The notes: generated from the letters alone by a model not told the origin. A stretch of 64,000 bases of DNA from Spirochaetota bacterium (GCA_029562645.1 JAKQUI010000033.1:59146-123145), one strand, 5' to 3'; shown: positions 12,886 to 63,967, counted from the stretch's first letter. A program made the numbers and translations.

Positions 12886-15393
12886 ATGATGAAATCGATC
12901 ACGCGCTATATGAAATATTTTTCCGGAATTGGCATTGTGATACTGCTGATCGTTTCAACAGGCTGCGGGAATATGATGGACGGGTATAGTGAAGGGGATG
13001 GGCCGGGCTCCGGGGACGCGAGTGGCGCAAATCCCTCCTTCAATGCCGCACCGGAGGTCTCCTTTACCAATCTTCGCAACAGACAACTGGTAAACAGCCC
13101 CATCGTCATTACCGGAGCTTCAGACGACGACCTGAGCGTGGACACGGTGCAGCTTTTTATCGATGGCGTCCCCCATGACGCAACGACCACCACGATGTGG
13201 TCGACCTGGACCTTCGACCTGGCGGGCGTCGCGCTGTCTTCGGGCCGGCACGAGTTTCGTGCCGTTGCAACGGACGCGAGCGGCGCCGAAGGATCCACGA
13301 CCGTTATCGTATACTTCCAGGACGGCCCCGACATGCTCCCCGTCGATGTCGATGCCGCTTCACTCGTATATGACTCGCAAACTCTTGCAGTAAACGGGAC
13401 GGTTTCCGTGACCGTTCGCAATCCCAGCGCCTACGCGGTGGAAGAACCCTATCGCGTGACTCTCTTCGCCGACGCGAACGGCAACGGGACCTACGAATCC
13501 GGAACCGACAGCATTCTCGGCGGCACGACCGTGGCGGACGGGCCCGCCGCGAACAGCGAATCGACGATTTCCATACCCGTAAACGCGACTGCCCTCTTCC
13601 GCGACAATCCCGTGTATGCGTTTGTCGATTCCGACGAAGCTATCATGGAGACCGATGAAATCAACAACGTGTATAACAGCATGGCGAGCTGCACTTATAC
13701 GGCACCACCAGGGACGTTTAATCCGGTGGTGAAGTGGCAGTGGACGGGGAGTACGGTGAATCCAAGTTCAAACCAAGTCATGTGTTCTCCCGTGGTAGCG
13801 AACCTCAACGATGACAATGGAGACGGGAAAATCGACAGCAATGACATTCCTGACATTATCTTCAATACTTTTTACAGTTACTACTACCACGACAGCGGAA
13901 CTCTCCGTGCAATCAGCGGTGACGGCACAATGGAATTATTCTCCGTCACCGGATATCCAACTTCACCAGGAGGGAATCCTGCCGTTGGAGACATCGACAA
14001 TGACGGCTTTCCGGACATTCTTGCAATTGGCCAAGAATCGGAAGGGAGCAAATTATTGTGTTTTAATCATGATGGAACTCTCAAATGGATATCTACAGAA
14101 GGAACGGGGAGTTATCTCTCCTGCCCTGCAATCGCAGACATCGATCACGATGGCGTTCCAGAGATCATTGTCGGCTCAAAGGTTTACAATAACAACGGGA
14201 CACTTCGCTGGCAAGGAACTCTTGGGACTGGGAGGAACAATTCTACCGTTGCCGACATAGACATGGACGGAGACATGGAAATCATTGCCGGGAATACTGT
14301 TTATCGTTCGAATGGTGATGTTTACTGGCAAAATGATCTTGTGTATGACGGCTATACGGCGATCGGAAACTTTGATGACGATTTCCTCCCTGAAATTGTT
14401 GTCGTAATGCAAGGCAATGTGTGGCTTCTGGAACATGATGGCGCAATCAAGTGGGGCCCGATAAATCTGCCGCATGGAGCCACACCAGCGCGTGGTGGAC
14501 CGCCCACCATAGCTGACATTGATGGCGATCAAGAGCCAGAAATCGGCATCGCCTGCGCCGAGTTCTTTGTTGTTCTTGAAACTGATGGAACAATTAAATG
14601 GCAGCAGCCAATTGACGATACGACCTCTTCAATCACTGGCTCATCAGTATTCGATTTCGAAGGCGACGGTAAAGCTGAGCTCGTATATGCTGATCAATAC
14701 AAACTCCGTATTTTTAACGGCCAAACTGGCGCGATCATTTTCGAGCACACTGCGGGTTCGGGAACGCTTCTCGAAATACCGATTGTTGTCGACGTCGACA
14801 ACGACAACAAGGCCGAAATTGTTGTTGTCGCGAATAATTACTGGAATTCATCGGTCAATCAAGGAGTTTACGTCTTCGGCGATGCGAACAACACCTGGGT
14901 AAACACCCGCAAGATCTGGAACCAGCACTCGTATCACGTAACCAACGTGAACGACGATGCCACCATCCCGCGCGTAGAACAGAACAACTGGATTACGTAC
15001 AACAACTACCGCCAGAACCAGCTTGAGCGACCATCCGGATGCTTTGACGTGTCCGCGTCGTACGTCCGCGTCACGCCTGATGCAAATCCAGGCGATTATA
15101 CCATCACCGCCCGCATCGGCAACAGCGGCGCGCTCGCAATTGGAAACACTATCGATGTAGCACTCTTCGACGGCAACCCGGAGACCGGCGGAACGCTGCT
15201 TGGCGTGAGTCAGATAACCAACCGCATGGAGGTTGGCGCATGCGTGGACGTCACATTCACGTGGAGCGGACCGGCGGCCGGGACACATTCGATCTATATC
15301 GTCGCTGACAGTAATGGGACAGGATTGAGTCGGTTGCGGGAGATGAATGAGGGGAATAATACGGGGACAACGTCAATAAATATTACTCCCTAG
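12886..15393 (+). CDS. FG-GAP/VCBS repeat lipoprotein with a C-terminal CARDB-like domain
   Basis: 835 aa. Lipobox LLIVSTGCG. Repeated D-x-D/N-x-D-G Ca-binding loops (DIDNDGFPDILAIG, ADIDHDGVPEIIVGS, ADIDMDGDMEIIAGN, DFEGDGKAELVYAD, VDVDNDNKAEIVVVA). The central part of the gene is markedly lower in GC than its 5' end. Confidence 0.6.
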   Translation: MMKSITRYMKYFSGIGIVILLIVSTGCGNMMDGYSEGDGPGSGDASGANPSFNAAPEVSFTNLRNRQLVNSPIVITGASDDDLSVDTVQLFIDGVPHDATTTTMWSTWTFDLAGVALSSGRHEFRAVATDASGAEGSTTVIVYFQDGPDMLPVDVDAASLVYDSQTLAVNGTVSVTVRNPSAYAVEEPYRVTLFADANGNGTYESGTDSILGGTTVADGPAANSESTISIPVNATALFRDNPVYAFVDSDEAIMETDEINNVYNSMASCTYTAPPGTFNPVVKWQWTGSTVNPSSNQVMCSPVVANLNDDNGDGKIDSNDIPDIIFNTFYSYYYHDSGTLRAISGDGTMELFSVTGYPTSPGGNPAVGDIDNDGFPDILAIGQESEGSKLLCFNHDGTLKWISTEGTGSYLSCPAIADIDHDGVPEIIVGSKVYNNNGTLRWQGTLGTGRNNSTVADIDMDGDMEIIAGNTVYRSNGDVYWQNDLVYDGYTAIGNFDDDFLPEIVVVMQGNVWLLEHDGAIKWGPINLPHGATPARGGPPTIADIDGDQEPEIGIACAEFFVVLETDGTIKWQQPIDDTTSSITGSSVFDFEGDGKAELVYADQYKLRIFNGQTGAIIFEHTAGSGTLLEIPIVVDVDNDNKAEIVVVANNYWNSSVNQGVYVFGDANNTWVNTRKIWNQHSYHVTNVNDDATIPRVEQNNWITYNNYRQNQLERPSGCFDVSASYVRVTPDANPGDYTITARIGNSGALAIGNTIDVALFDGNPETGGTLLGVSQITNRMEVGACVDVTFTWSGPAAGTHSIYIVADSNGTGLSRLREMNEGNNTGTTSINITP

Positions 15394-15443
15394 CGAAATA
15401 TTGTGCAATTTTTTATTTCGTTCATTAATGTTTTTTTTCACAT

Positions 15444-16322
15444 TCACGAAAGAAGGTATTCATCCACCAGCTGATCAGCGCCGTTTTGCGAGAAATCAAA
15501 ATCACGATACTCCCGCATTCGGCGCTGCCCCGTCTCGAATGTACGTACCGCGGGAACAAATATCGCTTCTTTGTTAAAGTAAATCATTTCCCAGAAAAAA
15601 TTATACCCGGCCCCGCACACAACGAGATCGAAAGCATTGTAGTAATCCGCAATTGGGAACAAGCCGTTCTCGTAATTCGATGAAAATTTTAACACATAGC
15701 CCTGCTCTTGCAAATACGAATATTCTTTTACCACTTGATGATACTCGCCAGGTTCCCCATTGTAGGCGATTAAACAATTCTGTTCGTTATGCGACAAGCC
15801 GATGCGTGCACAAGCCTGCTCTCTCGAAAGCAATTCATCCCGATTGCGTACAATGATTGGGCTAATGGCCTTCATTCGCACTTTTGAGTCAAACGGTTCA
15901 ATTCTCAAGACAAAATCGAAGGCGTCAGGATTAAAATCTAACAAACCACCATTCAGTTCCATTTGGAAAAATCGATCGTTCACCTGACGACAGAGAAATA
16001 TTTTTTTACATGCGAGATCACCAATGAAGTGGTACAACGGAAACCAGAGGAGATCAACAATGAGGACATCCGGACGCAAGCGCGACAACTCATTAAACAA
16101 ATGGGAAGACTTATAATTTCTGTCTGAGAGTGCCTCCTCGTCCTCTAATGGTATTTCTCTATGTGCAAATTTTAATTCGTCGCAAAGAAACGCGAAATCG
16201 GAACTACTCAAGATGGCATACTCTGCATCAAGCCCCTTACGACGAAGGGCATTGCCGATTGCAATGCCCCTTACGATTCTACCGGAACCAGTTATTCCTG
16301 AGGTATAATAAATTATCCGCAA
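15444..16322 (-). CDS. glycosyltransferase-like protein (GT-B / MurG-like N-terminal nucleotide-sugar motif)
   Basis: 292 aa. N-terminal MRIIYYTSGITGSGRIVRGIAIGNAL resembles the G-rich loop of GT28/MurG-type transferases. The gene is about 40-45% GC, far below the window average. Confidence 0.4.
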   Translation of the reverse strand: MRIIYYTSGITGSGRIVRGIAIGNALRRKGLDAEYAILSSSDFAFLCDELKFAHREIPLEDEEALSDRNYKSSHLFNELSRLRPDVLIVDLLWFPLYHFIGDLACKKIFLCRQVNDRFFQMELNGGLLDFNPDAFDFVLRIEPFDSKVRMKAISPIIVRNRDELLSREQACARIGLSHNEQNCLIAYNGEPGEYHQVVKEYSYLQEQGYVLKFSSNYENGLFPIADYYNAFDLVVCGAGYNFFWEMIYFNKEAIFVPAVRTFETGQRRMREYRDFDFSQNGADQLVDEYLLS

Positions 16323-16325
16323 GGA

Positions 16326-17597
16326 TCAACACTCGTAGAATTTAAAGTACCCGACACCCACACCTTTCGAGCCATATGATTGCCAATTTTCACCATCAAT
16401 ATCATCAAAGGCAAGTAACTGATCATACCCAGGATCACTTTCATCAATCACAAAAATCTTTCTATTTGTTTTTGCAACAATACGTTCCGGACCATAAAAT
16501 TTGCCAGGCCCAGATGGAGAACCCCCCGGTAAAACTGAACCATACCCCCGTACAAACCTTAGATTCTTATCAAGCTCAATAAATCTATAGCCATTCGCTC
16601 CAGCATTATTTGAAACAAACACCTTGTCATCCTTAACACAAATATCCCTAGCCCCGTTGATTTGAAAAGTATACGACCCAATCAGCGTCCCACTTCCACT
16701 TGGATTAAATTTATGAATCTTCTGCGTAGTTGCTATATATAAAATTCCATCGGTGTCAACCGCAAGGCCACGGATAAACTCCACGCCGTTGAGTGTAAAG
16801 GACTGGAGATTACCCCCAGCCGTATCTCTTCTATATACAGTACTAGGATCGTTAGCATTTTGAGTATAATAAACAAGGTTACTTTTTCGGTCAATCGCGA
16901 TCGAAGGATTCGTAAGCCCAGCAGTAACAATCGTATCGCACGTGGTACTATAAATATTATCAATCCTCACCATAAGTGGGGTCGTTGAATTAGAAATTAT
17001 ATAAATCCTCCCTTGGGCATCAAAGTCAATATCATATGGCTGCATTGCTCCCCCATAACCGATCTGCGAACCATTTCGATCAATCCAATTCTTCCCAGCC
17101 ATGTTTTCTATTTGAACGATACGATAATTTCTAAAATCCGGAATCACCAACTTCGTTTCATATGTCACCATCTGCATGGCGACTTCTTTCGTCTCCCCCG
17201 GCTCGAGATCCGCGGTGAGCGTCCCGCGATAGGAGAGCACCGCGCTCGGATCGCCGTCCTTCACGTAGCCGATCACCTGTATAAAACGCGACTTGCCCGC
17301 GGGGACAGTCACGGTGATATAGGTGGGCGGCGGCGAGTAGGAATTCTCGAAGGTCTTGATGTCCTCGGCGCTCACCACGATGGACACGCTCGCGATGTTC
17401 GACGGCGCCGCATACGCCTTCGGCATGATGAAATTCATGAACCGGTCGAACCGGGTCTTTGGAGCATTGAAGGCCTGGTCGAGGCCGAGGTTGATCACCA
17501 CGGTGGAATCGCCAAGCTCTCCGTCGGATTTGATGCAGCGAACGGATAGCATGCACAATGACGCCGCCAGAACGGTAATTGTGATTTTCTTTATCAT
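16326..17597 (-). CDS. secreted NHL-repeat (six-bladed beta-propeller) protein
   Basis: Start at MIKKITITVLAASLCMLSVRC (signal peptide). Repeated units such as ...LVYYTQNANDPSTVYRRD..., ...GILYIATTQKIHKFNPSG... and ...DKVFVSNNAGANGYRFIELD... fit NHL blades. The distal two-thirds is AT-rich and the 5' third is GC-rich. Confidence 0.5.
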   Translation of the reverse strand: MIKKITITVLAASLCMLSVRCIKSDGELGDSTVVINLGLDQAFNAPKTRFDRFMNFIMPKAYAAPSNIASVSIVVSAEDIKTFENSYSPPPTYITVTVPAGKSRFIQVIGYVKDGDPSAVLSYRGTLTADLEPGETKEVAMQMVTYETKLVIPDFRNYRIVQIENMAGKNWIDRNGSQIGYGGAMQPYDIDFDAQGRIYIISNSTTPLMVRIDNIYSTTCDTIVTAGLTNPSIAIDRKSNLVYYTQNANDPSTVYRRDTAGGNLQSFTLNGVEFIRGLAVDTDGILYIATTQKIHKFNPSGSGTLIGSYTFQINGARDICVKDDKVFVSNNAGANGYRFIELDKNLRFVRGYGSVLPGGSPSGPGKFYGPERIVAKTNRKIFVIDESDPGYDQLLAFDDIDGENWQSYGSKGVGVGYFKFYEC

Positions 17598-17719
17598 ACA
17601 GAAACTCCTCACGCACATACTCTTCCGCAAAAAACACACTGGGAGCGAGTTGGACGGTCTCTTTATATTCGGTACGTTTATAAAAGTACGATTTTCCGCG
17701 GAAATGTCAACAAAAATAT

Positions 17720-18445
17720 CTAGTTCGCGGTGATGACGACCGGCGTCCCCAGGCGAACGAAGCGGTCCAGCTCCACCACGTCGTTGTTGCGCATACGCAC
17801 GCAGCCGCTCGAGGAGAGCTGGCCCACGCCGGGCGCGTCGTTGTTGCCGTGGATGGCGATCCCGAAGCCGATCCCCGCCGGCTCGTCCGGGTCCTCCGCC
17901 GAGCGCGGGATGGAGCCTTTCTTGAGCGCAGCGGCGTACCTGCGCTCGTCGGCGGCGTTCGGATAGCTGATGCGAAAGAAGCGCGGGCCGTATACGTCGG
18001 TCCCCAGGTCCTCCTTCGGACGGCCGAACTTGAAGTGGCCGTCCTTGGCGTAAAAATGGGTCTCGTTCATCATCTTGAGTTTGCGGTACGATTCGGTGTT
18101 TTTCCCGGCGTCCATGCTCAGGATCTCGGTCACCTCGTAGGTCCCCTCGGGGGTGCGCAGGTCGCCCTCGTAGAGCTTCGGCCGGCGATCGCCGTTCCGG
18201 CCGTACCCGACGCGGTAGCTGGCGACCGTCTCGAGCTTTCGATTGATGACGCGCAGCGTGAACTCGCCCTTGCTCACATGGATGGCATACGGCCCCGGGT
18301 GCTTCGCAAAGGCCTTCCGCAGCTCGCTCTTAACGTCCGCAACGCACGACGTCGAGAACGCGACCATGAGACCGAGCGCCAGGACGAGCGATCTCGCGAC
18401 ATTCAACCGAGGCTTCAGTACGTTCTCATGCGATTGTTTGTTCAT
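17720..18445 (-). CDS. L,D-transpeptidase (YkuD domain)
   Basis: Start at MNKQSHENVLKPRLNVARSLVLALGLMVAFSTSCVA. C-terminal GIGFGIAIHGNNDAPGVGQLSSSGCVRMRNNDVVEL contains the conserved His...Ser-x-Gly-Cys-x-Arg catalytic motif. Confidence 0.65.
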   Translation of the reverse strand: MNKQSHENVLKPRLNVARSLVLALGLMVAFSTSCVADVKSELRKAFAKHPGPYAIHVSKGEFTLRVINRKLETVASYRVGYGRNGDRRPKLYEGDLRTPEGTYEVTEILSMDAGKNTESYRKLKMMNETHFYAKDGHFKFGRPKEDLGTDVYGPRFFRISYPNAADERRYAAALKKGSIPRSAEDPDEPAGIGFGIAIHGNNDAPGVGQLSSSGCVRMRNNDVVELDRFVRLGTPVVITAN

Positions 18446-48451: not shown

Positions 48452-48910
48452 ATGGCAATCGACACCACGCTCAACGTTCACGAGAGCACCCTGCGCCGCA
48501 TCGACAGGATCACATCAATAACGGGCCGCGCGCGCAATCGGGTCATCGTCGATTTGCTTACACGGGTGATGTCGGATCGGGGCAAGCAATTCGCGACGGG
48601 CTGCACGGTGCGCTATCAACGGCGCGACAACAAGGAGAAATGGCGAACGGTCCATGTTCGATTGAGCGAGGATGAGGTTGATTACTTTCGGGATCTGCGG
48701 GGGGTGTATAAGCGGTCGGAGTCGCTGCTACTGGCGGAGGCCGCCCGTGAATATCTGAGCGATATTATCAGGGAGGCGCTGCGCGGTGTGAAAAGCGATA
48801 ACCATCCGTTCCAGAACTACGTTCTGTCACGGCATGAGGCGGAAGGATTGATTTTCTGGACCATCTGCTGGGGATTCCCCCCAACCCCCCAAAACCACTT
48901 CAAGCTCTGA
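48452..48910 (+). CDS. hypothetical protein, paralog 2 of the 36260..36718 family
   Basis: MAIDTTLNVHESTLRRIDRITSITGRARN...KEKWRTVHVRLSEDEVDYFRD...AEAAREYL...EAEGLIFWTICWGFPPTPQNHFKL. Confidence 0.45.
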   Translation: MAIDTTLNVHESTLRRIDRITSITGRARNRVIVDLLTRVMSDRGKQFATGCTVRYQRRDNKEKWRTVHVRLSEDEVDYFRDLRGVYKRSESLLLAEAAREYLSDIIREALRGVKSDNHPFQNYVLSRHEAEGLIFWTICWGFPPTPQNHFKL

Positions 48911-48931
48911 CCCGTGCATCGCCGAAATGCG

Positions 48932-49420
48932 TCACTTCTTGCTCAGCTCGCCGTACAGCATCTTCGCGAGCCCCATATTCGCGGTCTTCGACATCTCCAG
49001 CGCATAGTTGTCGTACAGCATATCCTCGAAGATCTCCTCGGCGAAACCGCCGTGGAGCATCTCCCCCTTCTGGACGGTCTTGCGCATCTCCTTGAGCATC
49101 TTGGACACGAACAACGACTCCATCTCCACGCAGGCGTCCATGAGGCGCGTGTCCACGGGCTTGCGGTCCAGCGGGATCGCGTTATGCGGCGCACGGAATG
49201 TGTGGTTCGCCTCGGGCATGCGCATCCCCGCCGACTGCGACGCGCGTTTCCCGGGACCCGCAGCAAGACCCTCCACGTCGAGCACCTGGTGCATCACGCT
49301 CGCGAAATCGGCGTGTTTTCCGGATGTATCGACGCGCTTCTTCACGCCCTGCGCCGTCCCGCTCTCGAGAGCCGTGCGCCGCGCGTCCATGATCATCGAC
49401 AGGTCGTTTTGGGTAATCAT
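48932..49420 (-). CDS. flgJ: flagellar rod-binding protein (FlgJ N-terminal domain only)
   Basis: Start at MITQNDLSMIMDARRT. ...LESLFVSKMLKEMRKT...GGFAEEIFEDMLYDNYALEMSK... is the rod-binding motif. No muramidase domain. Confidence 0.6.
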   Translation of the reverse strand: MITQNDLSMIMDARRTALESGTAQGVKKRVDTSGKHADFASVMHQVLDVEGLAAGPGKRASQSAGMRMPEANHTFRAPHNAIPLDRKPVDTRLMDACVEMESLFVSKMLKEMRKTVQKGEMLHGGFAEEIFEDMLYDNYALEMSKTANMGLAKMLYGELSKK

Positions 49421-49430
49421 GCTCGCCTCA

Positions 49431-50444
49431 CTACCGTATGATAAGCTCCGCGTGGAGCGCCTTTGCCTCGTCCATGGCCTTGAGTATCGCGATAATATCA
49501 CGGGTGGACGCCCCGATGGAGCCCAGCGCGTCCACCAGGTCTTTCACCGTGGCGACATCCTTGATATGCGCAACCGACGTGGTGCCCGCACTCCCCTTGT
49601 CCTTCTTCTCGATGCGGACGGTCATCCCCTCCTTGCTCACAACCACCTCGGAGATCCGCACGGCGCCGCCCATCACGATGGTGCCGGAACGCTCGTCCAC
49701 CACGACCCGGGCGCGCGCGCTGGCCGGAACCTCGATCGCCTCGATCTTCGCGATGAACTCGTCCACGCTCGTTTCCTTGGGGACCACCAGTTTGATTTTT
49801 CCGCCTTTGGCGATCGCCGCCTTCGATTCGGGAAACGCGTCATTGAGCGCCTTCACGATGCGGCTGGCCATGGTAAAGTCCCAGTTCTCGAGCACCACCT
49901 GTATGGCGCTGTCGGCGCCGTACTCGGGCAGGCTTTCGCGCTCCACAATCCCGCCCCCGGAGATGCTCCCCACGGTCTTCACGGTCTTCGTCCGTCCGCC
50001 CGGAGCCCCCGCGCCGTCCATGGAGAGCGTCCCCTGCGCCGCCACGTACACCCGATCATCCGCGCCGCGCAGCGGGGACTGCACCAGGATCCCGCCCTCG
50101 AGCGACTTCGCATCTCCGATGGACGATACCGTGATGTCCACGCGGTCGCCCACGCGCGCGAAGGCCGGCAGCATCGCCGTGACCATCACGGCGGCGGTGT
50201 TCTTCGAGCCGATGTCGTCGCCCTCGATGCCCATGTTCTTCAGGAGATTGCGCAGCGACGTCTTCGTGAGCGCGGATCGCGTATCGCCGGTCCCCGGCAG
50301 GCCCACGACGATCCCGAAGCCCATGAGCTGGTTTTCCTTGAGGCCGTCCACATACGAGATGTCGCGAAGCTTCACCATCACCTCGGCGCGCGCGGCGAGC
50401 GCGAGCATCATCATGCACACAATGAATGCCGGTATCCGTTTCAT
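49431..50444 (-). CDS. flgI: flagellar P-ring protein
   Basis: 337 aa. Signal peptide. ...GFGIVVGLPGTGD... and ...GGILVQSPLRGADDRVYVAAQGTLS.... Confidence 0.9.
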   Translation of the reverse strand: MKRIPAFIVCMMMLALAARAEVMVKLRDISYVDGLKENQLMGFGIVVGLPGTGDTRSALTKTSLRNLLKNMGIEGDDIGSKNTAAVMVTAMLPAFARVGDRVDITVSSIGDAKSLEGGILVQSPLRGADDRVYVAAQGTLSMDGAGAPGGRTKTVKTVGSISGGGIVERESLPEYGADSAIQVVLENWDFTMASRIVKALNDAFPESKAAIAKGGKIKLVVPKETSVDEFIAKIEAIEVPASARARVVVDERSGTIVMGGAVRISEVVVSKEGMTVRIEKKDKGSAGTTSVAHIKDVATVKDLVDALGSIGASTRDIIAILKAMDEAKALHAELIIR

Positions 50445-50448
50445 GCCG

Positions 50449-51129
50449 TTAGCGGGTGATCTCCTGGAGCATTTTTTTCACGTAGTCGAGGATGATCCTC
50501 TGCTTCTCCTCCTCGGTAAGCTTGAAGGCGGCCGATTCGCCCTCCTTGAGCGGCTCGCGCTTCAGGTCCACCGGCGCGCCGGACTTGCCGCCCACGATGT
50601 CCATGCGGAAGTCGGCGATGTCGTCGGCGAGGACGGTCTTCCCCTTCACGAGCGCCGGATCGATGATGCCGCGGACGCGAAAGCTGCTGCGCACGCCATG
50701 GAAGGTGTAGTCGCGCCGGCCGTCCACCGTGAACTTGCCGTCGTCGCGCCGCCCCGTTACGCGCGCGGCGATCGACACCAGCATGTTGTTCTTTCCGGAG
50801 AAGTCCGTCTTGCCGGTGGACGCGCTCTTGCGGTCGGTGGACACCTTCGGTAAAAACGGGGTGATCCCCTGATCGGGGTTGGCGGTGATATTAAAGGTAT
50901 TGTTGTCCGCAACGGTGACGGAGAATTTCATCTGCGAGACGTCCTCGATCTTCACGATGAGGATGTCGCCCACCTTGAGGCTCGCGGCGGAGGAATAGAC
51001 ATTGCGGTCGGTCCAGAGCGATTTCGGGAACACGGCGGCCGCCGACAGGATGAACACCAGCACGAATGACACGATGAGAAACCCGACGATGGCGCCGGTC
51101 GCGTCATCGGCATATGCGTTCCGCCTCAC
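50449..51129 (-). CDS. flgH: flagellar L-ring protein
   Basis: 226 aa. ...VGDILIVKIEDVSQ..., ...NMLVSIAARVT...DGKFTVDGRRDYTFHGVRSSFRVRGII.... No cysteine anywhere in the protein. The N-terminus is a hydrophobic anchor rather than a lipobox. Confidence 0.8.
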   Translation of the reverse strand: MRRNAYADDATGAIVGFLIVSFVLVFILSAAAVFPKSLWTDRNVYSSAASLKVGDILIVKIEDVSQMKFSVTVADNNTFNITANPDQGITPFLPKVSTDRKSASTGKTDFSGKNNMLVSIAARVTGRRDDGKFTVDGRRDYTFHGVRSSFRVRGIIDPALVKGKTVLADDIADFRMDIVGGKSGAPVDLKREPLKEGESAAFKLTEEEKQRIILDYVKKMLQEITR

Positions 51130-51644
51130 AGCGTCACCTCCACCCGGCCGCCCTCGACGATCCGGCCGGTGAGCCGCGCGGCGCCCTTCAGGCGGACGGA
51201 AACAGTCTCGCCCGCGCGCCCGTCGCCCAGCGCCACGCCGGGAAGCTCAATGGCAACGCCGTTCTTGCGAACGACCACGGTGATCCGCTCGCCCGCCTTG
51301 ATCCCGACGTCCCGCGCCGGCCCCGCGGGGGCCTCGTCGCGCGCGCCGTTCGGCCGGACGATGCGCACGGCGTTACCCTCGATGAACACGAGATCATTCG
51401 TGAGCCGCGCGACAAGCGCCGCGATCTCGGTGCGGTCCAGCAATCCGTCGCGGCAGAGCTCGCCGGGAATCAGGATTGCGCCGATCGCGTCGGTGGCCGC
51501 GCCGGCCTCCACGCGGGCGACGTCCGACAACGCAAGCGGCGCGTCGCCCCGCTGCGCGGTGGGATAGAGCAGCAGCCGCACCTCGGCCGCGGCGACGCCG
51601 AGCGCCGTTATGAGAAACGCGACGATGAGGGCCGCGCGCAGCAT
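51126..51644 (-). CDS. flgA: flagellar basal-body P-ring formation protein FlgA (SAF domain)
   Basis: 172 aa. Signal peptide. C-terminal ...IKAGERITVVVRKNGVAIELPGVALGDGRAGETVSVRL.... Confidence 0.65.
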   Translation of the reverse strand: MLRAALIVAFLITALGVAAAEVRLLLYPTAQRGDAPLALSDVARVEAGAATDAIGAILIPGELCRDGLLDRTEIAALVARLTNDLVFIEGNAVRIVRPNGARDEAPAGPARDVGIKAGERITVVVRKNGVAIELPGVALGDGRAGETVSVRLKGAARLTGRIVEGGRVEVTL

Positions 51645-51645
51645 C

Positions 51646-52440
51646 TTACCGCTTGAGCCCGATCGCCGTGCCGAGCATGTTGTCGGAGGTGAGGATCGCC
51701 TTGGAGTTGAGTTCGTAGGCGCGCTGCGCCACGATCATGTTCACCATCTCCTCGACCACCTTCACGTTGGACATCTCGAGGAAGCCCTGGTGCGTCTTGG
51801 CCATACCGCCCAGGCCCGGCTGGCCCGCGATCTCGGGGCCGGATGCCGGCGTGGTCTTGTAGAGGTTCCCGCCGATGCTGGCCAGGCCCGCCGGGTTCAC
51901 GAAGCGATAGATCTCGAGCTGGCCCACGTCGATGGGATCGTCCTCGCCCACCAGCTTCACGGTGATGCGGCCGTCCTGGCTGATGGCCAGCGAATCGTGG
52001 ATGAAATTCTCCGGCAGGATGAGCGGCGGCTCGAGCAGGTAGCCGTTGGAGGTGACCACCTGGCGGTTGGAGTCGATCTTCCAGGAACCGTCGCGCGTAT
52101 AGGCGAACGTGCCATCATACAACTGCACTTTGAAGAACCCCTCGCCCTCGAGCGCGAGATCGAGCTTGTTTTCGGTGTTCTGGAGGCTGCCCTGCATGAA
52201 CATCTTCTGCGAGGCCGAGGTCTTCACGCCGTGGCCCACCTGGATGCCGGTGGGGACCTCGCTCACCTCGGTCGCGGGCGTTCCCGCCATCAACATGGTC
52301 TGATAGATCAGGTCCTCGAACTCGGCCCGGCTCTTCTTGAATCCGGTGGTATTCACATTGGAAAGGTTGTTCGATATCGTATCGATATTGAACTGCTGGC
52401 CGATCATGCCGGAAGCGGCCGTCCAGAGCGATCTCATCAT
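51646..52440 (-). CDS. flgG: flagellar basal-body rod protein FlgG
   Basis: 264 aa. MMRSLWTAASGMIGQQFNIDTISNNLSNVNTTGFKKSRAEFEDLIYQ... ...SNVKVVEEMVNMIVAQRAYELNSKAI.... Collinear with enterobacterial FlgG over its whole length. Confidence 0.9.
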   Translation of the reverse strand: MMRSLWTAASGMIGQQFNIDTISNNLSNVNTTGFKKSRAEFEDLIYQTMLMAGTPATEVSEVPTGIQVGHGVKTSASQKMFMQGSLQNTENKLDLALEGEGFFKVQLYDGTFAYTRDGSWKIDSNRQVVTSNGYLLEPPLILPENFIHDSLAISQDGRITVKLVGEDDPIDVGQLEIYRFVNPAGLASIGGNLYKTTPASGPEIAGQPGLGGMAKTHQGFLEMSNVKVVEEMVNMIVAQRAYELNSKAILTSDNMLGTAIGLKR

Positions 52441-56114: not shown

Positions 56115-56459
56115 ATGCCCTATGTGAAAATCCAAACCAATCAAACGCCCACCGACGCCGACGCGGCGCGCATCAGCGAAAAGGCCTCGGCCTTCGCCGC
56201 GGCCGAGCTCGGCAAGCCGGAGCGCTACGTGATGGTCGCGCTCGAAACGGGCGTCACCATGCGCTACGCCGGGTCCGACGCGCCCTGCGCCTATCTCGAG
56301 GTGAAGAGCATCGGCCTCGCCGAGCAGGCGATCGAGACGCTCTCCGCCTCCTTCTGCGACTTTTGCGCCGCCGAGCTTGCCGTCGCGCCCGACCGCGTAT
56401 TCATCCGGTTCGAGGCGCCGCCCGGCGCGTGGTGGGGCTGGAACCGGAGGACCTTCTAG
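56115..56459 (+). CDS. MIF / tautomerase-family protein
   Basis: Starts MPYVKIQTN with Pro immediately after Met, the catalytic Pro-1 of tautomerases. About 114 aa. Its stop is adjacent to the metH start. Confidence 0.55.
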   Translation: MPYVKIQTNQTPTDADAARISEKASAFAAAELGKPERYVMVALETGVTMRYAGSDAPCAYLEVKSIGLAEQAIETLSASFCDFCAAELAVAPDRVFIRFEAPPGAWWGWNRRTF

Positions 56460-56461
56460 CC

Positions 56462-58894
<2,433 letters not shown>

Positions 58895-59156
58895 ATTTTG
58901 CCATATTTTTGTTGACAATATCCCTTCACGCCAAAAAAGTGATGGGGACGCACATCGTGTAATCCGTTCATTTTTTCGGTTTCCCGTCGTCTTCGGCAAT
59001 GCCGGCGGGCGCCCGGTCGGGCGCGCCGAGGGGACCGGACACCAGCAATTCTACATGCCGGCGCGCGTCCGCGCGGGACCGGCTGGAGGGTAACAGGCCG
59101 TACGTCAATCCCGAGCGCCCCACACACGCGACACTAAATTAGTAAGGAGATTATTC

Positions 59157-59690
59157 GTGAAACGGACATTGATTTTAATCTTCCTGCCGTTCCTCGTCGT
59201 GCTACCGTTTTCTTACGTCATTTCCGAAAAAGCCTGCGGCTCGCTAATGAGCTTTCACGCGAAAAAACCCATCCCGTTCAACCACAAGTCCCACATCACC
59301 AAGTATGGGGCGGCCAACTGCGAAACCTGCCACGGCTATTACGAGAACGGCCGCTTCAAGGGGCTGCCCACGGTGGGCGAATGCAAGGCATGCCACACCG
59401 ACAACGACGCCGGGAAAACCCCCGAGCAGGCGCGAAGCAAGCCGTTCTTCGCGAACTACAAGGACGGCGATCGCCCCTGGGAGGCCTTCGCGAAACAGCC
59501 CGACCTGGTCTACTTTAGCCACATGGCGGTCATGAAAAACGAGAAGCAAGCGCGCTGCTCGTCCTGTCACGGGCTCAAGGAAGACTCGATGACCACCGCC
59601 AAGATCAAGGGCAAGATGCCGATGGGCCAGTGCATGGACTGCCACACCGCGCTCAAGATCAGCAATGCCTGCATGGTCTGTCACGACTGA
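59157..59690 (+). CDS. membrane-anchored pentaheme cytochrome c (ActA/QrcA-like)
   Basis: GTG start with an AAGGAGA RBS. N-terminal TM. Five CxxCH motifs (CETCH, CKACH, CSSCH, CMDCH, CMVCH). Confidence 0.8.
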   Translation: MKRTLILIFLPFLVVLPFSYVISEKACGSLMSFHAKKPIPFNHKSHITKYGAANCETCHGYYENGRFKGLPTVGECKACHTDNDAGKTPEQARSKPFFANYKDGDRPWEAFAKQPDLVYFSHMAVMKNEKQARCSSCHGLKEDSMTTAKIKGKMPMGQCMDCHTALKISNACMVCHD

Positions 59691-59738
59691 TATACCGGCT
59701 GCCATCCGGAAAATCTACGACAAGGAGTCATTACCTGT

Positions 59739-61751
59739 ATGAAAATAGACCGAAAAGATTTCCTCAAAGTTGCCGGCGGCGCCGTCGTGGGAGGCGCGGC
59801 GGGATTCGTGTTCTCCGGCGCTCCCTTCAACGCCTTTCAGTGGATCGTCGAATGGACCCAGGACCAGTACGTTCCGGGCAGCGGCGCGGAGCGCTATCTC
59901 CAGAGCATCTGCCAGGCCTGCCCCAATGCCTGCACCGTCTCGGTGCGCATGATCGGCGAACGGGCCGTGAAGATCGAGACCTCGGTTGGCGGCGGATGCC
60001 CCATCGGACAGAACCTCATACAGCAACTCTATCACCCCGACCGCGTCGCCTTCCCCATGGAGCGCGCCGGCGCGAAGGGAAAAGCGAAATTCACCGCCCA
60101 GATCGGGGACGCGGCATGGAACACCGCCGTGGAAAAAATAGCGAAAAAGATCGGCGAGCTCCGCGCGGCGAACAAGCCGTTGTCCATCGCCGCCATCAAC
60201 GGCGCGCACGCCGGCGTTTCGGGCCTCCTGCTCGACCGGCTCGTGAAGGCATGCGGCAGCCCGCACGTGTACACGGAACCCTGCGTGCACGGCGCCTCAT
60301 CGGCCGCGGTCAGGGCGCTGTACAACAAAGAAGGATCGCTCGGCTACGATTTCGCCGGCGCCGACTACATCCTCAGCTTTAGCGCGCGCCTCTTCGAGGG
60401 CTGGGGGATGATGGCCGACATGCACAAGAACCTCCTGGCCTGGAAAAAAAGCGGCACCCGGCTCGTCCAGATCGACGCCCAGTGCACGCGCACCGCGTCC
60501 CTCGCCACCGAGTGGGTCCCCCTCCCCAAGGCGGGCACCGAGGCGGTCCTGGCGATGGGCATCGCCCACCTGCTATTCAAGGCCGGCAAGCGGTCGAACG
60601 CCGCGAACGCCGCCGCCTGGACGCAGATCGTGATGAACGACTACACCCCGGACCGGGTGGCGAAGGTCACCGGCGTTCCGGAAGCCACGCTCAAGAAGAT
60701 CGCCGACGCCCTGATGCGTGCGCGCAGGCCCATCGCGGTCGCCGGGCGCGGCGCCAAAAGCGTATCATCCTCGACGCTCGAGATAGCCGCGATCGAGGGC
60801 CTCAATTCCATGCTGGGCGGCGGGACCTTCATTGAGACGCCCCCGACGCTGGGCGCGCCGCGATACGATGCGGCCGCGGCCGCCTCGATCAAGAACGCCA
60901 AGACCTTCGCCGGGCTGGACGAGTTCATCAAAAGCAAGGACGCCTTCGACGTCGTGTTCATCAACGATGCCGATCCGGTGTACCGCAGCGTCTTCGGCAA
61001 AGAGCTCGCGAAAAAGCTCGAACAAGCGTCGCTGGTGGTCGCGTTCACCACCCTGATAAACGACACCGCGGCCTATGCCGACATCGTGCTTCCCACGGTC
61101 ACCTCGCTTGAGCTGCCGTCGGTGGACAAGAAGACCGTTGTCGCGCCGCGTTACAAGGCGATGCACGCGGGGGACGCCATCATCGCCATCGCCAAGAAGA
61201 TCGCCGGCGTTGCGGACTCCTTCCCCTATGCACGCTATTCCGACGCCGTCGCGGCGGCCGGAAAGGGCGGCCGGGCGGCAGGCGGCGCACCTACGATCCC
61301 GATCGCGCTTTTCGAAAAATACTACAACACCATCAGCAAAAAGGTGGACGACACCGCCTTTCCGCTCTCGCTCATCCCCTTCGAGGTGCCCAGCATCGGC
61401 GATGGGGCCGGCCTGGCCCTGCCCTACACGCTCAAGAGCATCGACGAGAAGGTCTACTCGCGCAACAAGCTCTGGGTCCACATGAACCCGGAAACAGCGA
61501 AGAAATTCGGGAAATGCGAGGGCTCTCGCGTGGACCTCGAATCACAGCGCGGCGAGGTGGGCTCCGTTCGCGTGCACCTCACCAAGACCGTCGCCCCGGA
61601 CACGGTCGCCGTTCCGCTCGGATTCGGCCACCGGCACTATACCGCATATGGCGAGGACAAGGGCGTAAACCCCAAGGAAATCATGTGCGACGATATCGAT
61701 CCCGTATCCGGTAACGCCGACTGGTGGTTTACCAGGATCAAACTGAGCTAA
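59739..61751 (+). CDS. molybdopterin-oxidoreductase-family subunit (QrcB/ActB1-like)
   Basis: 670 aa. Degenerate twin-arginine-like leader MKIDRKDFLKVAGGAVVGGAAGF. N-terminal FeS-binding CQACPNAC...C. AAGGAG RBS. Confidence 0.8.
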   Translation: MKIDRKDFLKVAGGAVVGGAAGFVFSGAPFNAFQWIVEWTQDQYVPGSGAERYLQSICQACPNACTVSVRMIGERAVKIETSVGGGCPIGQNLIQQLYHPDRVAFPMERAGAKGKAKFTAQIGDAAWNTAVEKIAKKIGELRAANKPLSIAAINGAHAGVSGLLLDRLVKACGSPHVYTEPCVHGASSAAVRALYNKEGSLGYDFAGADYILSFSARLFEGWGMMADMHKNLLAWKKSGTRLVQIDAQCTRTASLATEWVPLPKAGTEAVLAMGIAHLLFKAGKRSNAANAAAWTQIVMNDYTPDRVAKVTGVPEATLKKIADALMRARRPIAVAGRGAKSVSSSTLEIAAIEGLNSMLGGGTFIETPPTLGAPRYDAAAAASIKNAKTFAGLDEFIKSKDAFDVVFINDADPVYRSVFGKELAKKLEQASLVVAFTTLINDTAAYADIVLPTVTSLELPSVDKKTVVAPRYKAMHAGDAIIAIAKKIAGVADSFPYARYSDAVAAAGKGGRAAGGAPTIPIALFEKYYNTISKKVDDTAFPLSLIPFEVPSIGDGAGLALPYTLKSIDEKVYSRNKLWVHMNPETAKKFGKCEGSRVDLESQRGEVGSVRVHLTKTVAPDTVAVPLGFGHRHYTAYGEDKGVNPKEIMCDDIDPVSGNADWWFTRIKLS

Positions 61752-61766
61752 GGAGCAGAACGACCA

Positions 61767-62573
61767 ATGGCAACAATGAAACGTAAGTGGGGAATGGCGA
61801 TAGATCTTGATAAATGCACCGGCTGCGGGGCATGTTCGATCGCGTGCATGCAGGAAAACAACCTGCCCATGTTCACGGACGATTCGGACTCGCCCAAGCG
61901 GGTCACCTTCCTGGACCTCATGCGCGTCACCAACGACCGCGACACGGACAAGAAGTTCGGCGACGTCGAGACCGCCTTCATCCCCAAGATGTGCCAGCAG
62001 TGCGAAGGGAACGACCCCAAGAACCCGAAGCCCCCGTGCGTGTCGGTATGCCCCGTCGTGGCCACCGACGTCGGCGACGACGGCGTGGTGAGCCAGATCT
62101 GGTCGCGCTGCATCGGTTGCCGATACTGCCAGGCGTCGTGCCCGTACGAGGCGCGCGTGTTCAACTGGTGGAAACCGGACTACGAGGGCTCCTTCAAGGA
62201 GGGACTCAGCCCCGACGTATCGGTCCCCTCGCGCGGCACCGTGATCAAGTGCACCTTCTGCAGCCACATCTGGAAGCGTGAGCGCGACCGCATGCTCGCC
62301 AAGGGCGTCAAGGACATCAACGCCGTCCTCTACACCCCGAGCTGCGCATCGGCCTGCCCCACCGGCGCCATCATCTTCGGCGACCTCAACGATCAGGCGT
62401 CCGAAGTGTCCCGCCTGGCCAAGGACAAGCGCGCGTTCCGCCTGGTGCACACCATCGACGACAAGCCCGAAGAGGAAAAGAAGCGCCTGATGGCGATCAA
62501 GCACTATCCGAATCCCAAGGTTTACTACCTTTCCAGTAAGCAGTGGATCAAGGATATGCAGAAGTTCAAATAA
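61767..62573 (+). CDS. 4Fe-4S ferredoxin-type iron-sulfur subunit (PsrB/NrfC/QrcC/ActB2-like)
   Basis: 268 aa. Four Cys clusters: CTGCGACSIAC, CQQCEGN...CVSVCP, CIGCRYCQASCP and CTFC...CASACP. Confidence 0.85.
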   Translation: MATMKRKWGMAIDLDKCTGCGACSIACMQENNLPMFTDDSDSPKRVTFLDLMRVTNDRDTDKKFGDVETAFIPKMCQQCEGNDPKNPKPPCVSVCPVVATDVGDDGVVSQIWSRCIGCRYCQASCPYEARVFNWWKPDYEGSFKEGLSPDVSVPSRGTVIKCTFCSHIWKRERDRMLAKGVKDINAVLYTPSCASACPTGAIIFGDLNDQASEVSRLAKDKRAFRLVHTIDDKPEEEKKRLMAIKHYPNPKVYYLSSKQWIKDMQKFK

Positions 62574-62596
62574 TCCTGAGACAAGGAAGGGATTCA

Positions 62597-63907
62597 ATGG
62601 AAATACTCAATCAGATCAAAGACGAATGGAACGCCGCGAAAACGGCCTGTTTAAACGGCATCACCGGCGCGATGAAATTCTGCAAAGACGAGTGGAACGG
62701 CTACACCAGAAACATCAAGATCACGCTCCTGGTCCTCTTCGGGCTTGTGGGGCTGTTCATCATCTTTGGCATCCAGATCCTCGGCTGGGGCCTCGGGTAC
62801 ACCGACATGAGCAACCTGTACCCCTTCGGCCAGTGGATCATCGGCGACCTGGGTCTCGTGGGACTGGGCGGCGGCGCGTTCACCATGGGATTTTTCCTCT
62901 ACATCCTGCGCGTGGACAAGCTGAAGCCACTCATCAACTCCACCGTGCTCATCGGGTTCATGTGCTACCTGTTCACCCTGGTGTTCCTGGTGTTCGATAT
63001 CGGCCAGCCGCTCCGCGCATGGTTCGGCTACGCCTACCCCAACTGGGGACACGGTCTCATGCCGCAATCGATGCTCACCGAAGTGGTTTGGTGTCTCACC
63101 TTCTACTTCTGCGTGCTCATCATTGAGCTGGTGCCGCTCCCGCTGGAGCATCCGGTCCTGCAAAAGTTTCCCTTTATCCATGGCCTCACGCACTACATGC
63201 ACAAGCTCATGTGGATCATGGCTGCGGCCGGCACCTTCCTTTCCTTCTTCCACCAGGGATCGCTCGGCGGCGGGATGTGGGGCGTTCTATACGGCAAGGT
63301 GGTCTGGTATCGCCCGGCATATTTCTTCACGGCGATAGTCGCCGCGACGGCCGGCGGCACGGCCTTCATGGCCTTGTGCGCCTACATCGCCGGCAAGGTC
63401 ATGAAGAAGGAAGTGGTGCCGTGGGACTCCTTCCAAACGCTTGCGCAGATTTCCGGCGTACTCACCATCTTCGCCTTCCTGTTCCAGGCGTGGCACGTCT
63501 ACATGCAGGCGACCCATTTCGTCCCCGCATTCGACCGGAGTTTCCTCGACATCTGGGGCGGCTACTATGGGATCTGGATGGTGGTTCTCATGTTCGCCGC
63601 CTATATCGGAGCGATCGTGCTGCTCAATGTCGGAGCGCTTCGCTCACAGGAGCGCTTCTTCGTGGCGGGGATATCCTGCGGAGTTGGCGCAATCTCCTTC
63701 GACAAGATGATCGTGGTGCTGCATGGATCGTCCACCCCCAACTTCCCCTGGAAGTCGTTCGCCGGGTACAACCCGACCATCCAGGAATGGGGGATCTTCC
63801 TCGGGGGGCTGGCCACCATGATACTCATCTACATGCTCTTCGCGAAGTACTTCCCGCTCTTCCCGCACCTGAACAAGCACGGGCACGGCGAGGAACACGC
63901 GCATTAG
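62597..63907 (+). CDS. NrfD/PsrC-family integral membrane quinone-interacting subunit (QrcD/ActC-like)
   Basis: Start at MEILNQIKDEWN. About 10 predicted transmembrane helices. Follows the FeS subunit gene after a 23-nt gap. Confidence 0.8.
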   Translation: MEILNQIKDEWNAAKTACLNGITGAMKFCKDEWNGYTRNIKITLLVLFGLVGLFIIFGIQILGWGLGYTDMSNLYPFGQWIIGDLGLVGLGGGAFTMGFFLYILRVDKLKPLINSTVLIGFMCYLFTLVFLVFDIGQPLRAWFGYAYPNWGHGLMPQSMLTEVVWCLTFYFCVLIIELVPLPLEHPVLQKFPFIHGLTHYMHKLMWIMAAAGTFLSFFHQGSLGGGMWGVLYGKVVWYRPAYFFTAIVAATAGGTAFMALCAYIAGKVMKKEVVPWDSFQTLAQISGVLTIFAFLFQAWHVYMQATHFVPAFDRSFLDIWGGYYGIWMVVLMFAAYIGAIVLLNVGALRSQERFFVAGISCGVGAISFDKMIVVLHGSSTPNFPWKSFAGYNPTIQEWGIFLGGLATMILIYMLFAKYFPLFPHLNKHGHGEEHAH

Positions 63908-63932
63908 AAATTCTATTTAAATAATGCACCCG

Positions 63933-63967
63933 AAACGGGAGCGAGTTATCGCTCCCGTTTTTTGTTT
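63933..63967 (+). terminator. rho-independent terminator closing the respiratory operon
   Basis: AAACGGGAGCGA-gtta-TCGCTCCCGTTT followed by TTTTGTTTG. Confidence 0.7.

Follow-up and report, generated by a model that had tools for sequence, protein, structure and literature searches.

The quinone reductase complex Qrc (QrcABCD) is described as a hallmark of the sulfate reducers of the Desulfobacterota and as confined to the Deltaproteobacteria/Desulfobacterota (PMC6303296, PMC13059093); QrcD was found only in Deltaproteobacteria in the 2018 paper, and the same framing is kept in the 2026 paper. In Desulfobacterota a soluble formate dehydrogenase (FDH) that lacks a membrane subunit transfers electrons to a periplasmic cytochrome, which in turn passes them to Qrc (PMC6303296, PMC13059093). 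Cytochrome c3:menaquinone oxidoreductase activity, electrogenic with H+/e- = 1, is the defining reaction of Qrc and is assayed in proteoliposomes (PMC6303296). The Desulfovibrio complex can work in either direction, syntrophic growth depends on it (PMC6303296), and its large subunit type, QrcB, has been described as a protein without redox cofactors (PMC13059093, 2026). The other systems considered were alternative complex III (ACIII; ActABCDEF; PDB 6F0K, 6BTM, 6LOD, 8K9E) and the Psr/Phs/Arr reductases (PsrABC, 2VPZ; PhsABC; ArrAB, 6CZ7). Here we analysed a four-gene operon located at positions 59157-63967 on the + strand of a 64-kb stretch of DNA, hereafter named the window, from a Spirochaetota metagenome-assembled genome (MAG). 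The product of the operon is most likely a cytochrome c:menaquinone oxidoreductase of the Qrc type from an uncultured spirochaete, a reading that we hold with good, if not complete, confidence. According to the sequence comparisons, it is predicted to belong with QrcABCD in both function and phylogeny and to form a divergent sister clade specific to the Spirochaetota.

The first gene is qrcA-like (59157-59690, GTG start) and encodes a pentahaem cytochrome c of 177 amino acids (aa) with five CxxCH motifs (subunit A). The qrcB-like gene that follows it (59739-61751) encodes a 670-aa protein (subunit B) with the fold of enzymes carrying a molybdo-bis(pyranopterin guanine dinucleotide) cofactor (Mo-bisPGD), a leader for twin-arginine translocation (Tat) in the R-K variant and no conserved Mo ligand. 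The qrcC-like gene (61767-62573) encodes a four-cluster iron-sulfur (FeS) subunit of 268 aa with 16 cysteines and no signal peptide (subunit C), and the qrcD-like gene (62597-63907, ATG start) an NrfD-family membrane subunit of 436 aa with about ten transmembrane helices and a predicted quinone site (subunit D). In Pfam, A matched a class III/c7 cytochrome, B both Molybdopterin and Molydop_binding, C 4Fe-4S dicluster domains and D NrfD. The gene order and the similar subunit sizes are those of QrcABCD (Nitratidesulfovibrio vulgaris DVU0692-0695 and the canonical loci L092 and L093), as a preliminary description of this DNA had noted. That description had also called the operon a minimal member of its lineage, a label that adds nothing since four genes are the normal Qrc complement.

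In order to assign the subunits to families, they were compared with the NCBIfam models, among which NF041781-NF041784 are the Qrc equivalogs. Each of the four subunits had Qrc as its best family, and the second-best family was far behind. Subunit A gave 105.6 bits with QrcA (cut-off 180), the runner-up being TmcA with 35 bits, and subunit B gave 317.3 bits with QrcB (cut-off 440), followed by PhsA (161.5; cut-off 694), ArrA (110.4; cut-off 1600) and TtrA (36.4; cut-off 1750). For subunit C the score was 279.9 bits with QrcC (cut-off 400; DsrO as runner-up, 130), and for subunit D it was 287.2 bits with QrcD (cut-off 570), ahead of HybB (81) and HmcC (61). The loci L092 and L093, in which all four subunits exceed the equivalog cut-offs (QrcA 269/248, QrcB 524/537, QrcC 445/439 and QrcD 671/675 bits), were used as canonical Qrc comparators. 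End-to-end identity of the window proteins to those of L092/L093 was 32-33% for A, 33-34% for B, 45-46% for C and 36% for D, and a group of distant B homologues (P0107-P0120, ~30-33% identity) passed the QrcB cut-off with 517-569 bits, L092 and L093 being the loci of two of them. The clade thus differs from canonical Qrc in its identity of only 32-46% and its sub-cut-off scores, and also in its host, Spirochaetota/Leptospirales as opposed to sulfate-reducing Desulfobacterota. A further difference lies downstream: directly after qrcD the canonical loci contain an open reading frame (ORF) of 52-56 aa (L092:12352-12522, L093:12557-12715) and then aroA, whereas nothing comparable occurs in the spirochaete clade, and in the window the place of the small ORF and aroA is taken by a terminator. 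Existing database labels are the generic "molybdopterin oxidoreductase" and "polysulfide reductase NrfD" in GenBank, and "menaquinone reductase" for some members in JGI.

The residues of the electron and proton path were then compared with those of the characterized complex. In N. vulgaris, the ability to grow on formate and to transfer electrons to menaquinone-4 (MK4) is lost when QrcC Y113 or QrcD S138, D70, Y110 or Y150 is mutated, QrcC Y113 being essential for quinone reduction, whereas QrcD D120, R358 and E413 are dispensable (PMC13059093). In subunit C the 16 cysteines form four ferredoxin-type groups, and all of them are invariant in 71 clade and two canonical sequences. The same invariance was observed for Tyr120 (Tyr113 in QrcC of D. 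vulgaris), a residue placed between two cysteines of the proximal cluster. In subunit D, Asp84, Tyr124, Ser158 and Tyr170 (D. vulgaris D70, Y110, S138 and Y150) are invariant in 70 clade sequences. The position of D120 is occupied by Asp in 67 of these and by Glu in the other three, R358 is replaced with Lys in 67/70, and E413 is not kept. Both of the latter differences from canonical Qrc fit the mutagenesis pattern, because R358 and E413 are dispensable in the N. vulgaris complex. Every residue shown to be essential by mutagenesis of N. vulgaris Qrc is therefore invariant in the 70-71 clade sequences. Hydropathy analysis of D revealed about ten hydrophobic segments, and its alignment with the 413-aa canonical QrcD was full length, with short gaps only. 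The 16 cysteines and the essential Tyr of C, together with the ~10 helices and the D70, Y110, D120, S138 and Y150 positions of D, are thus features in common with QrcABCD.

A search with subunit D of 1.84 billion representative proteins gave 663 matches, and a neighbour-joining tree was built with 44 full-length sequences and 200 bootstraps. The spirochaete D proteins and three divergent offshoots were monophyletic in 200/200 replicates, and the spirochaete clade plus canonical QrcD separated from all the other matches with the same support, so that D is sister to canonical QrcD. A phylogeny of this subunit had been proposed in the preliminary description. Two of the other NrfD matches were checked and gave about equal scores to HmcC and HybB. 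The three offshoots (P0123, P0124 and P0127) are proteins of 373-389 aa from short metagenome contigs; they are very divergent and form long branches inside the spirochaete QrcD clade (200/200).

Subunit A is the sole ORF of the 64-kb window with at least two CxxCH motifs, and it contains exactly five. Among 70 clade sequences no variation was seen at the five sites or at His43, His46, His122 and Met156, and Met154 is present in 68/70. The N-terminus consists of a hydrophobic helix followed by Cys27 (window positions 59235-59237), which is invariant in the same 70 sequences, mostly with Asp next to it; canonical QrcA has Tyr or Phe at this position and a plain N-terminal helix. Cys27 is probably a lipobox cysteine, which would provide a lipid anchor in place of a transmembrane helix, and the putative lipobox is atypical at positions -3 and -2. 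The closest solved chains in a PDB search with A were those of ActA from ACIII (E 6.5e-12); no Qrc structure was among the matches of any PDB search made here, and none was therefore competing with ActA. The preliminary description took five CxxCH motifs plus an N-terminal anchor as ActA-like features. This argument did not hold, since both canonical QrcA proteins (L092 and L093), which score above the NCBIfam cut-off, contain five CxxCH motifs and an N-terminal helix. The number of haems does not discriminate Qrc from ACIII, because the two canonical QrcA recovered are pentahaem as well, and the pentahaem QrcA is a point of likeness to QrcABCD. In the literature QrcA/ActA are termed "penta/hexaheme" (PMC6303296).

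One important question is whether the operon might be a stripped-down ACIII, that is, a menaquinol:cytochrome c oxidoreductase, possibly proton-pumping, with a terminal oxidase or some other reductase of the periplasm as the recipient of its electrons. Besides the ActA matches of subunit A, the combination of a pentahaem cytochrome, a cofactor-less Mo-like protein, an FeS protein and a 10-helix NrfD subunit is common to ACIII (PMC6303296), and ACIII is present in some cultured Spirochaetes (PMC8076601). The likeness extends to the membrane anchoring of the pentahaem cytochrome, the four-cluster FeS module and a quinone site on the periplasmic side. However, B and C are separate ORFs, each with its own ribosome-binding site, whereas ActB is a fusion. 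Only one NrfD gene is present before the terminator, and neither actD, actE nor actF (the second NrfD subunit of ACIII) was detected in any of the ~80 loci or among the recurrent neighbours (82 loci). No oxidase genes are linked to the operon. The similarity of the B profile to ActB is marginal (29.5 bits, E 2.5e-6), and the single-sequence PDB search with D (E <= 0.01) returned nothing, although the solved set includes ActC and PsrC. Subunit D groups with QrcD and keeps the QrcD proton-uptake residues, and the Arg proposed as the ActC gate is Lys in D. We therefore regard an ACIII function as improbable. The hybrid between Qrc and ACIII put forward in the preliminary description was also rejected: Qrc is the best family for all four subunits, B and C are unfused, the ActB match is marginal and ActC is not matched. 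Its observation that no actDEF genes follow the operon was correct, the next 8 kb containing sdpI, eamA, folD, archease and rtcB.

The AlphaFold model of B had a mean predicted local distance difference test score (pLDDT) of 86.8, with ~56-77 in the leader and in the region of the FS0 cluster, and the best fold matches in Foldseek were ArrA (template modelling score, TM, 0.76) and PsrA (TM 0.74), both of which also lead the sequence searches of solved structures. These analyses confirm the fold and are silent on cofactor binding. ArrA (Cys193, ...HSSVC...) and PsrA (Cys173, ...VSLC...) have their Mo-ligand cysteines in one and the same column of the profile alignment, and this column corresponds to His184 in the window protein, is occupied by K/N/D/C/W/E across the clade and is D or Q in canonical QrcB. 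A ligand alignment had been recommended in the preliminary description, and the one made here shows no conserved Mo ligand in the large subunit. Cys182, two residues before that column, was found in only 14/77 clade members; of the others, 36 have Ser, 16 Gly and 11 Thr. All four cysteines of the FS0 type (C58, C61, C65 and C87) are present in the window B and in canonical QrcB, and the first of them is lost in 24/77 clade members. Mean pairwise identity within the clade was 52% for B, 60% for A, 64% for D and 74% for C, so that B is the least conserved subunit; it was also the lowest in the canonical pair (B 51%, A 55%, D 70% and C 73%), the subunits of both groups ranking alike in their rates of evolution. 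The variable Mo-ligand column, the fastest evolution and the absence of a molybdenum cofactor (Moco) riboswitch at the operon argue for B being a QrcB-like scaffold rather than a catalytic subunit. Canonical QrcB (P0107-P0120; L092:8001-10199; L093:8001-10277) contains the full CxxCxxxC...C FS0-type motif and matches Pfam Molybdop_Fe4S4, in contrast to the description of QrcB as free of redox cofactors (PMC13059093); the assembly of FS0 in Qrc seems a debatable point.

The Tat motif in the leader of B is of the R-K variant in 61 members of the clade, against 15 with R-R, and otherwise follows the consensus [DE]R[KR]DFLK. The degenerate motif had been taken as a sign of a cofactor-less QrcB, a link that had to be discarded because canonical QrcB has the perfect motif DRRSFL; the R-K form in most members is a difference from QrcABCD, while the Mo-bisPGD-like fold, the Tat leader, the FS0-type cysteine motif and the lack of a conserved Mo ligand are likenesses. 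Among complex iron-sulfur molybdoenzymes (CISM), Tat hitch-hiking is the export of a partner subunit by means of the signal-bearing one. Subunit C itself lacks a signal peptide and therefore presumably still depends on B for export.

If B were catalytic, the operon would encode a Mo/W-bisPGD reductase of the Psr/Phs/Arr type with an acquired cytochrome, in which menaquinol electrons travel through D and C to an active site in B that reduces polysulfide, thiosulfate, arsenate or another substrate. The complete Mo-bisPGD fold of B, shared with ArrA and PsrA as the best solved matches (TM 0.74-0.76), an FeS subunit and NrfD-family anchor of the same type, the four FS0 cysteines and Tat-type leader of the window B and Cys182 beside the ligand column fit this explanation, but it is improbable considering that the ArrA/PsrA ligand column is His in the window and variable in the clade, that Cys182 and the first FS0 cysteine are not general features of the clade, that B evolves faster than C and D and falls short of ArrA and PsrA by 100-150 residues, that the PhsA and ArrA scores are far under their cut-offs and below that of QrcB, that no Moco riboswitch was found, that the anchor has 10 helices instead of 8-9, and that the extra cytochrome subunit is always present and conserved. 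An ordinary Psr/Ttr-type reductase is likewise unlikely: grouping with Psr, Phs or Ttr and retention of the Mo ligands, which the preliminary description named as evidence for such an enzyme, were not observed, because no Mo ligand is conserved and QrcB scores 317 bits against 161 for PhsA and 110 for ArrA.

Several observations weigh against the assignment to Qrc. All four subunits score under the NCBIfam equivalog cut-offs, and strict functional equivalence to Qrc is not established by such scores. In the window B the four FS0 cysteines are present, as is a cysteine two residues before the Mo-ligand column, and a pterin cofactor could be bound even where the protein supplies no ligand. The tree of D was a neighbour-joining tree of 44 sequences that contained neither ActC nor PsrC references. 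In addition, neither FDH, hydrogenase, soluble cytochrome c3 nor quinol oxidase genes were detected in the 64 kb of the window or the 8 kb that follow, in agreement with the earlier remark that the redox partner is not encoded nearby.

The distribution of the operon was studied by searches with B and by a genome scan. The window originates from a Spirochaetota MAG, and its B protein is identical to GenBank HOS41661.1 and HPU88822.1, both from MAGs named "Spirochaetota bacterium"; it occurs on contigs of up to 296 kb, and a near-identical cluster member on one of 396 kb. Homologues of B with 42-56% identity form more than 100 protein clusters, of which the named ones are almost all from MAGs of Spirochaetes, Spirochaetota or Leptospirales. 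For the genome scan, one genome per GTDB species was searched with an alignment of the clade only, the canonical loci being fetched separately; 103 genomes matched and 80 loci were kept, nearly all of them from uncultured Spirochaetota MAGs. Carriers include RBG_13_51_14, HGW-Spirochaetae-5, UBA5550 (locus L070), UBA5763 and UBA2205. The A-B-C-D order was kept in every one of the ~80 loci with a long enough contig, and an identical four-gene order in so many related loci is no chance arrangement.

A candidate redox partner was found in relatives of the window. An FDH operon is located within 10 kb upstream of qrcA in nine of them (L057, L063, L051, L009, L053, L058, L059, L065 and L078). In the three loci that were listed gene by gene it is directly adjacent (L057:3255-8846, L063:3511-9104 and L051:4152-8914) and ends 0.3-0.6 kb before qrcA. 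The FdhA of these relatives has a Tat leader and an in-frame TGA codon (selenocysteine), and its C-terminal part gave 1013 bits with TIGR01553, above the cut-off. The FDH operon also encodes FdhE. FdhB matches the FDH-N beta profile, which has 283 positions, from 22 to 230 only; since the match stops at 230/283, FdhB apparently lacks the C-terminal membrane anchor, and no cytochrome b subunit was present in the relatives' loci examined. Beside the FDH operon, 6/9 relatives encode a five-haem cytochrome with a clear lipobox, which is a paralogue of QrcA. This arrangement of FDH, cytochrome and qrc genes reproduces the logic of the Desulfobacterota: a soluble periplasmic FdhAB without membrane subunit is associated with the complex in both, with the difference that the neighbouring cytochrome in the clade is a pentahaem QrcA paralogue and not the tetrahaem TpIc3.

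In the mechanism proposed below, gene content, homology, residue conservation and synteny were observed, and the statements on cofactors, on the type of quinone, on partners in the window's genome and on the direction of electron flow are inferred. Subunit B, which has a Tat leader, and subunit C, which has none, would probably be exported together and dock on the 10-helix D at the periplasmic face, and A would be held at the membrane by its N-terminus, probably via the lipidated Cys27. Periplasmic multihaem cytochromes would exchange electrons with the five haems of A, these with the four FeS clusters of C, and the clusters with a menaquinone site on the periplasmic side, where C and D meet. 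B would serve as a scaffold without Mo or W and with at most a remnant FS0 cluster. The protons for the quinone chemistry would pass through D to or from the cytoplasm, so that membrane potential would be generated by quinone reduction and spent by quinol oxidation, as was measured for the Desulfovibrio complex. The likely partner, judging from the nine relatives, would be a soluble periplasmic selenocysteine-containing FdhAB acting via the pentahaem lipoprotein cytochrome. Electrons might flow either from formate to menaquinone or, driven by the proton-motive force in syntrophic fatty-acid oxidation, from menaquinol to formate.

Because the Desulfovibrio complex is reversible and required for syntrophy, reverse electron transport from menaquinol to formate would be plausible in the clade; forward flow from formate to menaquinone and on to cytochrome bd or another quinol oxidase appears equally compatible with the sequence data. 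Spirochaetota of class UBA4802 have been proposed as syntrophic oxidisers of butyrate or long-chain fatty acids in anaerobic digesters, families UBA5368 and UBA5550 being named in the second of two studies, and they express or encode FDH, FdhE, electron-transferring flavoprotein (ETF):quinone oxidoreductase, multihaem cytochromes and cytochrome bd (PMC7382037, PMC13248872). Qrc is not mentioned in either study. It is possible, as a tentative proposal that we would not yet call likely, that the Spirochaetota Qrc clade is the missing membrane link in such syntrophic fatty-acid-oxidising spirochaetes (class UBA4802, e.g. UBA5550) and is run in reverse. In that case acyl-CoA dehydrogenase, ETF and ETF:quinone oxidoreductase would reduce menaquinone, and the electrons of menaquinol would pass to QrcA, to the pentahaem lipoprotein cytochrome and to the selenocysteine FdhAB, with formate as the product for methanogens. 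If this were true, Qrc would be at work outside sulfate respiration, in a route of reverse electron transport unlike the cytochrome b-linked FDH/hydrogenase of Syntrophomonas and Syntrophus.

Independently of the direction of flow, a well-conserved sister clade in ~100 uncultured spirochaete species places the design of soluble FDH, cytochrome and Qrc outside the Desulfobacterota and possibly outside sulfate respiration; the taxonomic range of Qrc is thereby extended, and probably its physiological range too. The phylum, the sub-equivalog scores, the probable lipoprotein anchor and the pentahaem paralogue as partner are new, and the mechanism itself was already known. The clade is a testable candidate for the link between the quinone pool and periplasmic formate in the proposed syntrophic digester spirochaetes.

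With respect to gene calls and expression signals, Shine-Dalgarno sequences were found 5-11 nt before the start codons: TAAGGAG for A, AAGGAG for B, TAAGGAG for C and AAGGAAGGG for D. The start of D at ATG 62597 is that chosen by public gene callers, and the longest ORF begins at GTG 62543, overlapping C. The operon is closed by an intrinsic terminator at 63932-63967 on the + strand (hairpin and T-run at 63932-63961). The stem of the hairpin measures 13 bp, seven of them G-C pairs, and the loop 4 nt. The folding energy was -25.3 kcal/mol (z = -5.35), and none of 200 shuffled sequences was as stable (0/200). The four co-directional genes and the terminator constitute a real, intact operon, and the genes, order, sizes, ribosome-binding sites and terminator are as the preliminary description had given them. 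The region between the end of metH (58894) and the operon (58895-59156, + strand) is the presumed promoter region; the sigma-70 scan of it did not reveal any promoter-like site on the + strand. The Rfam search at the operon did not detect any riboswitch, the Moco riboswitch included, and two sub-threshold matches overlie the terminator hairpin.

The rest of the window contains housekeeping genes (bamA, lpxD, glycolysis genes, an ATP-binding cassette transporter, flagellar rod/ring genes, a PAS histidine kinase, ksgA and metH) and no other respiratory gene; the five genes in the 8 kb past its end do not include any respiratory gene either. The operon sits amid genes of one-carbon/folate metabolism, with metH (56363-58894) upstream and folD (L001:15043-15933) just past the window end. 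Among the neighbours of 82 loci, metH recurred 36 times (upstream), folD 34 (downstream), a trans-polyprenyl diphosphate synthase gene 29 and the gene for formate-tetrahydrofolate ligase 10 times. The proximity of these genes may reflect a functional linkage (formate, quinone side chain) or mere conserved synteny.

Flagellar P-ring and L-ring genes, flgI and flgH, are located together with flgJ-like, flgA and flgG at ~48900-52300 of the window (L010:8676-12184). Among spirochaetes, flgI and flgH are a trait of Leptospira-like lineages and are not known as one of Treponema or Borrelia. The region at 14001-18000 has a low GC content (0.48, against ~0.61 elsewhere); this stretch holds a gene for an 835-aa FG-GAP/Big_7 repeat protein (12886-15393) and two ORFs on the - strand, and it may represent acquired DNA.

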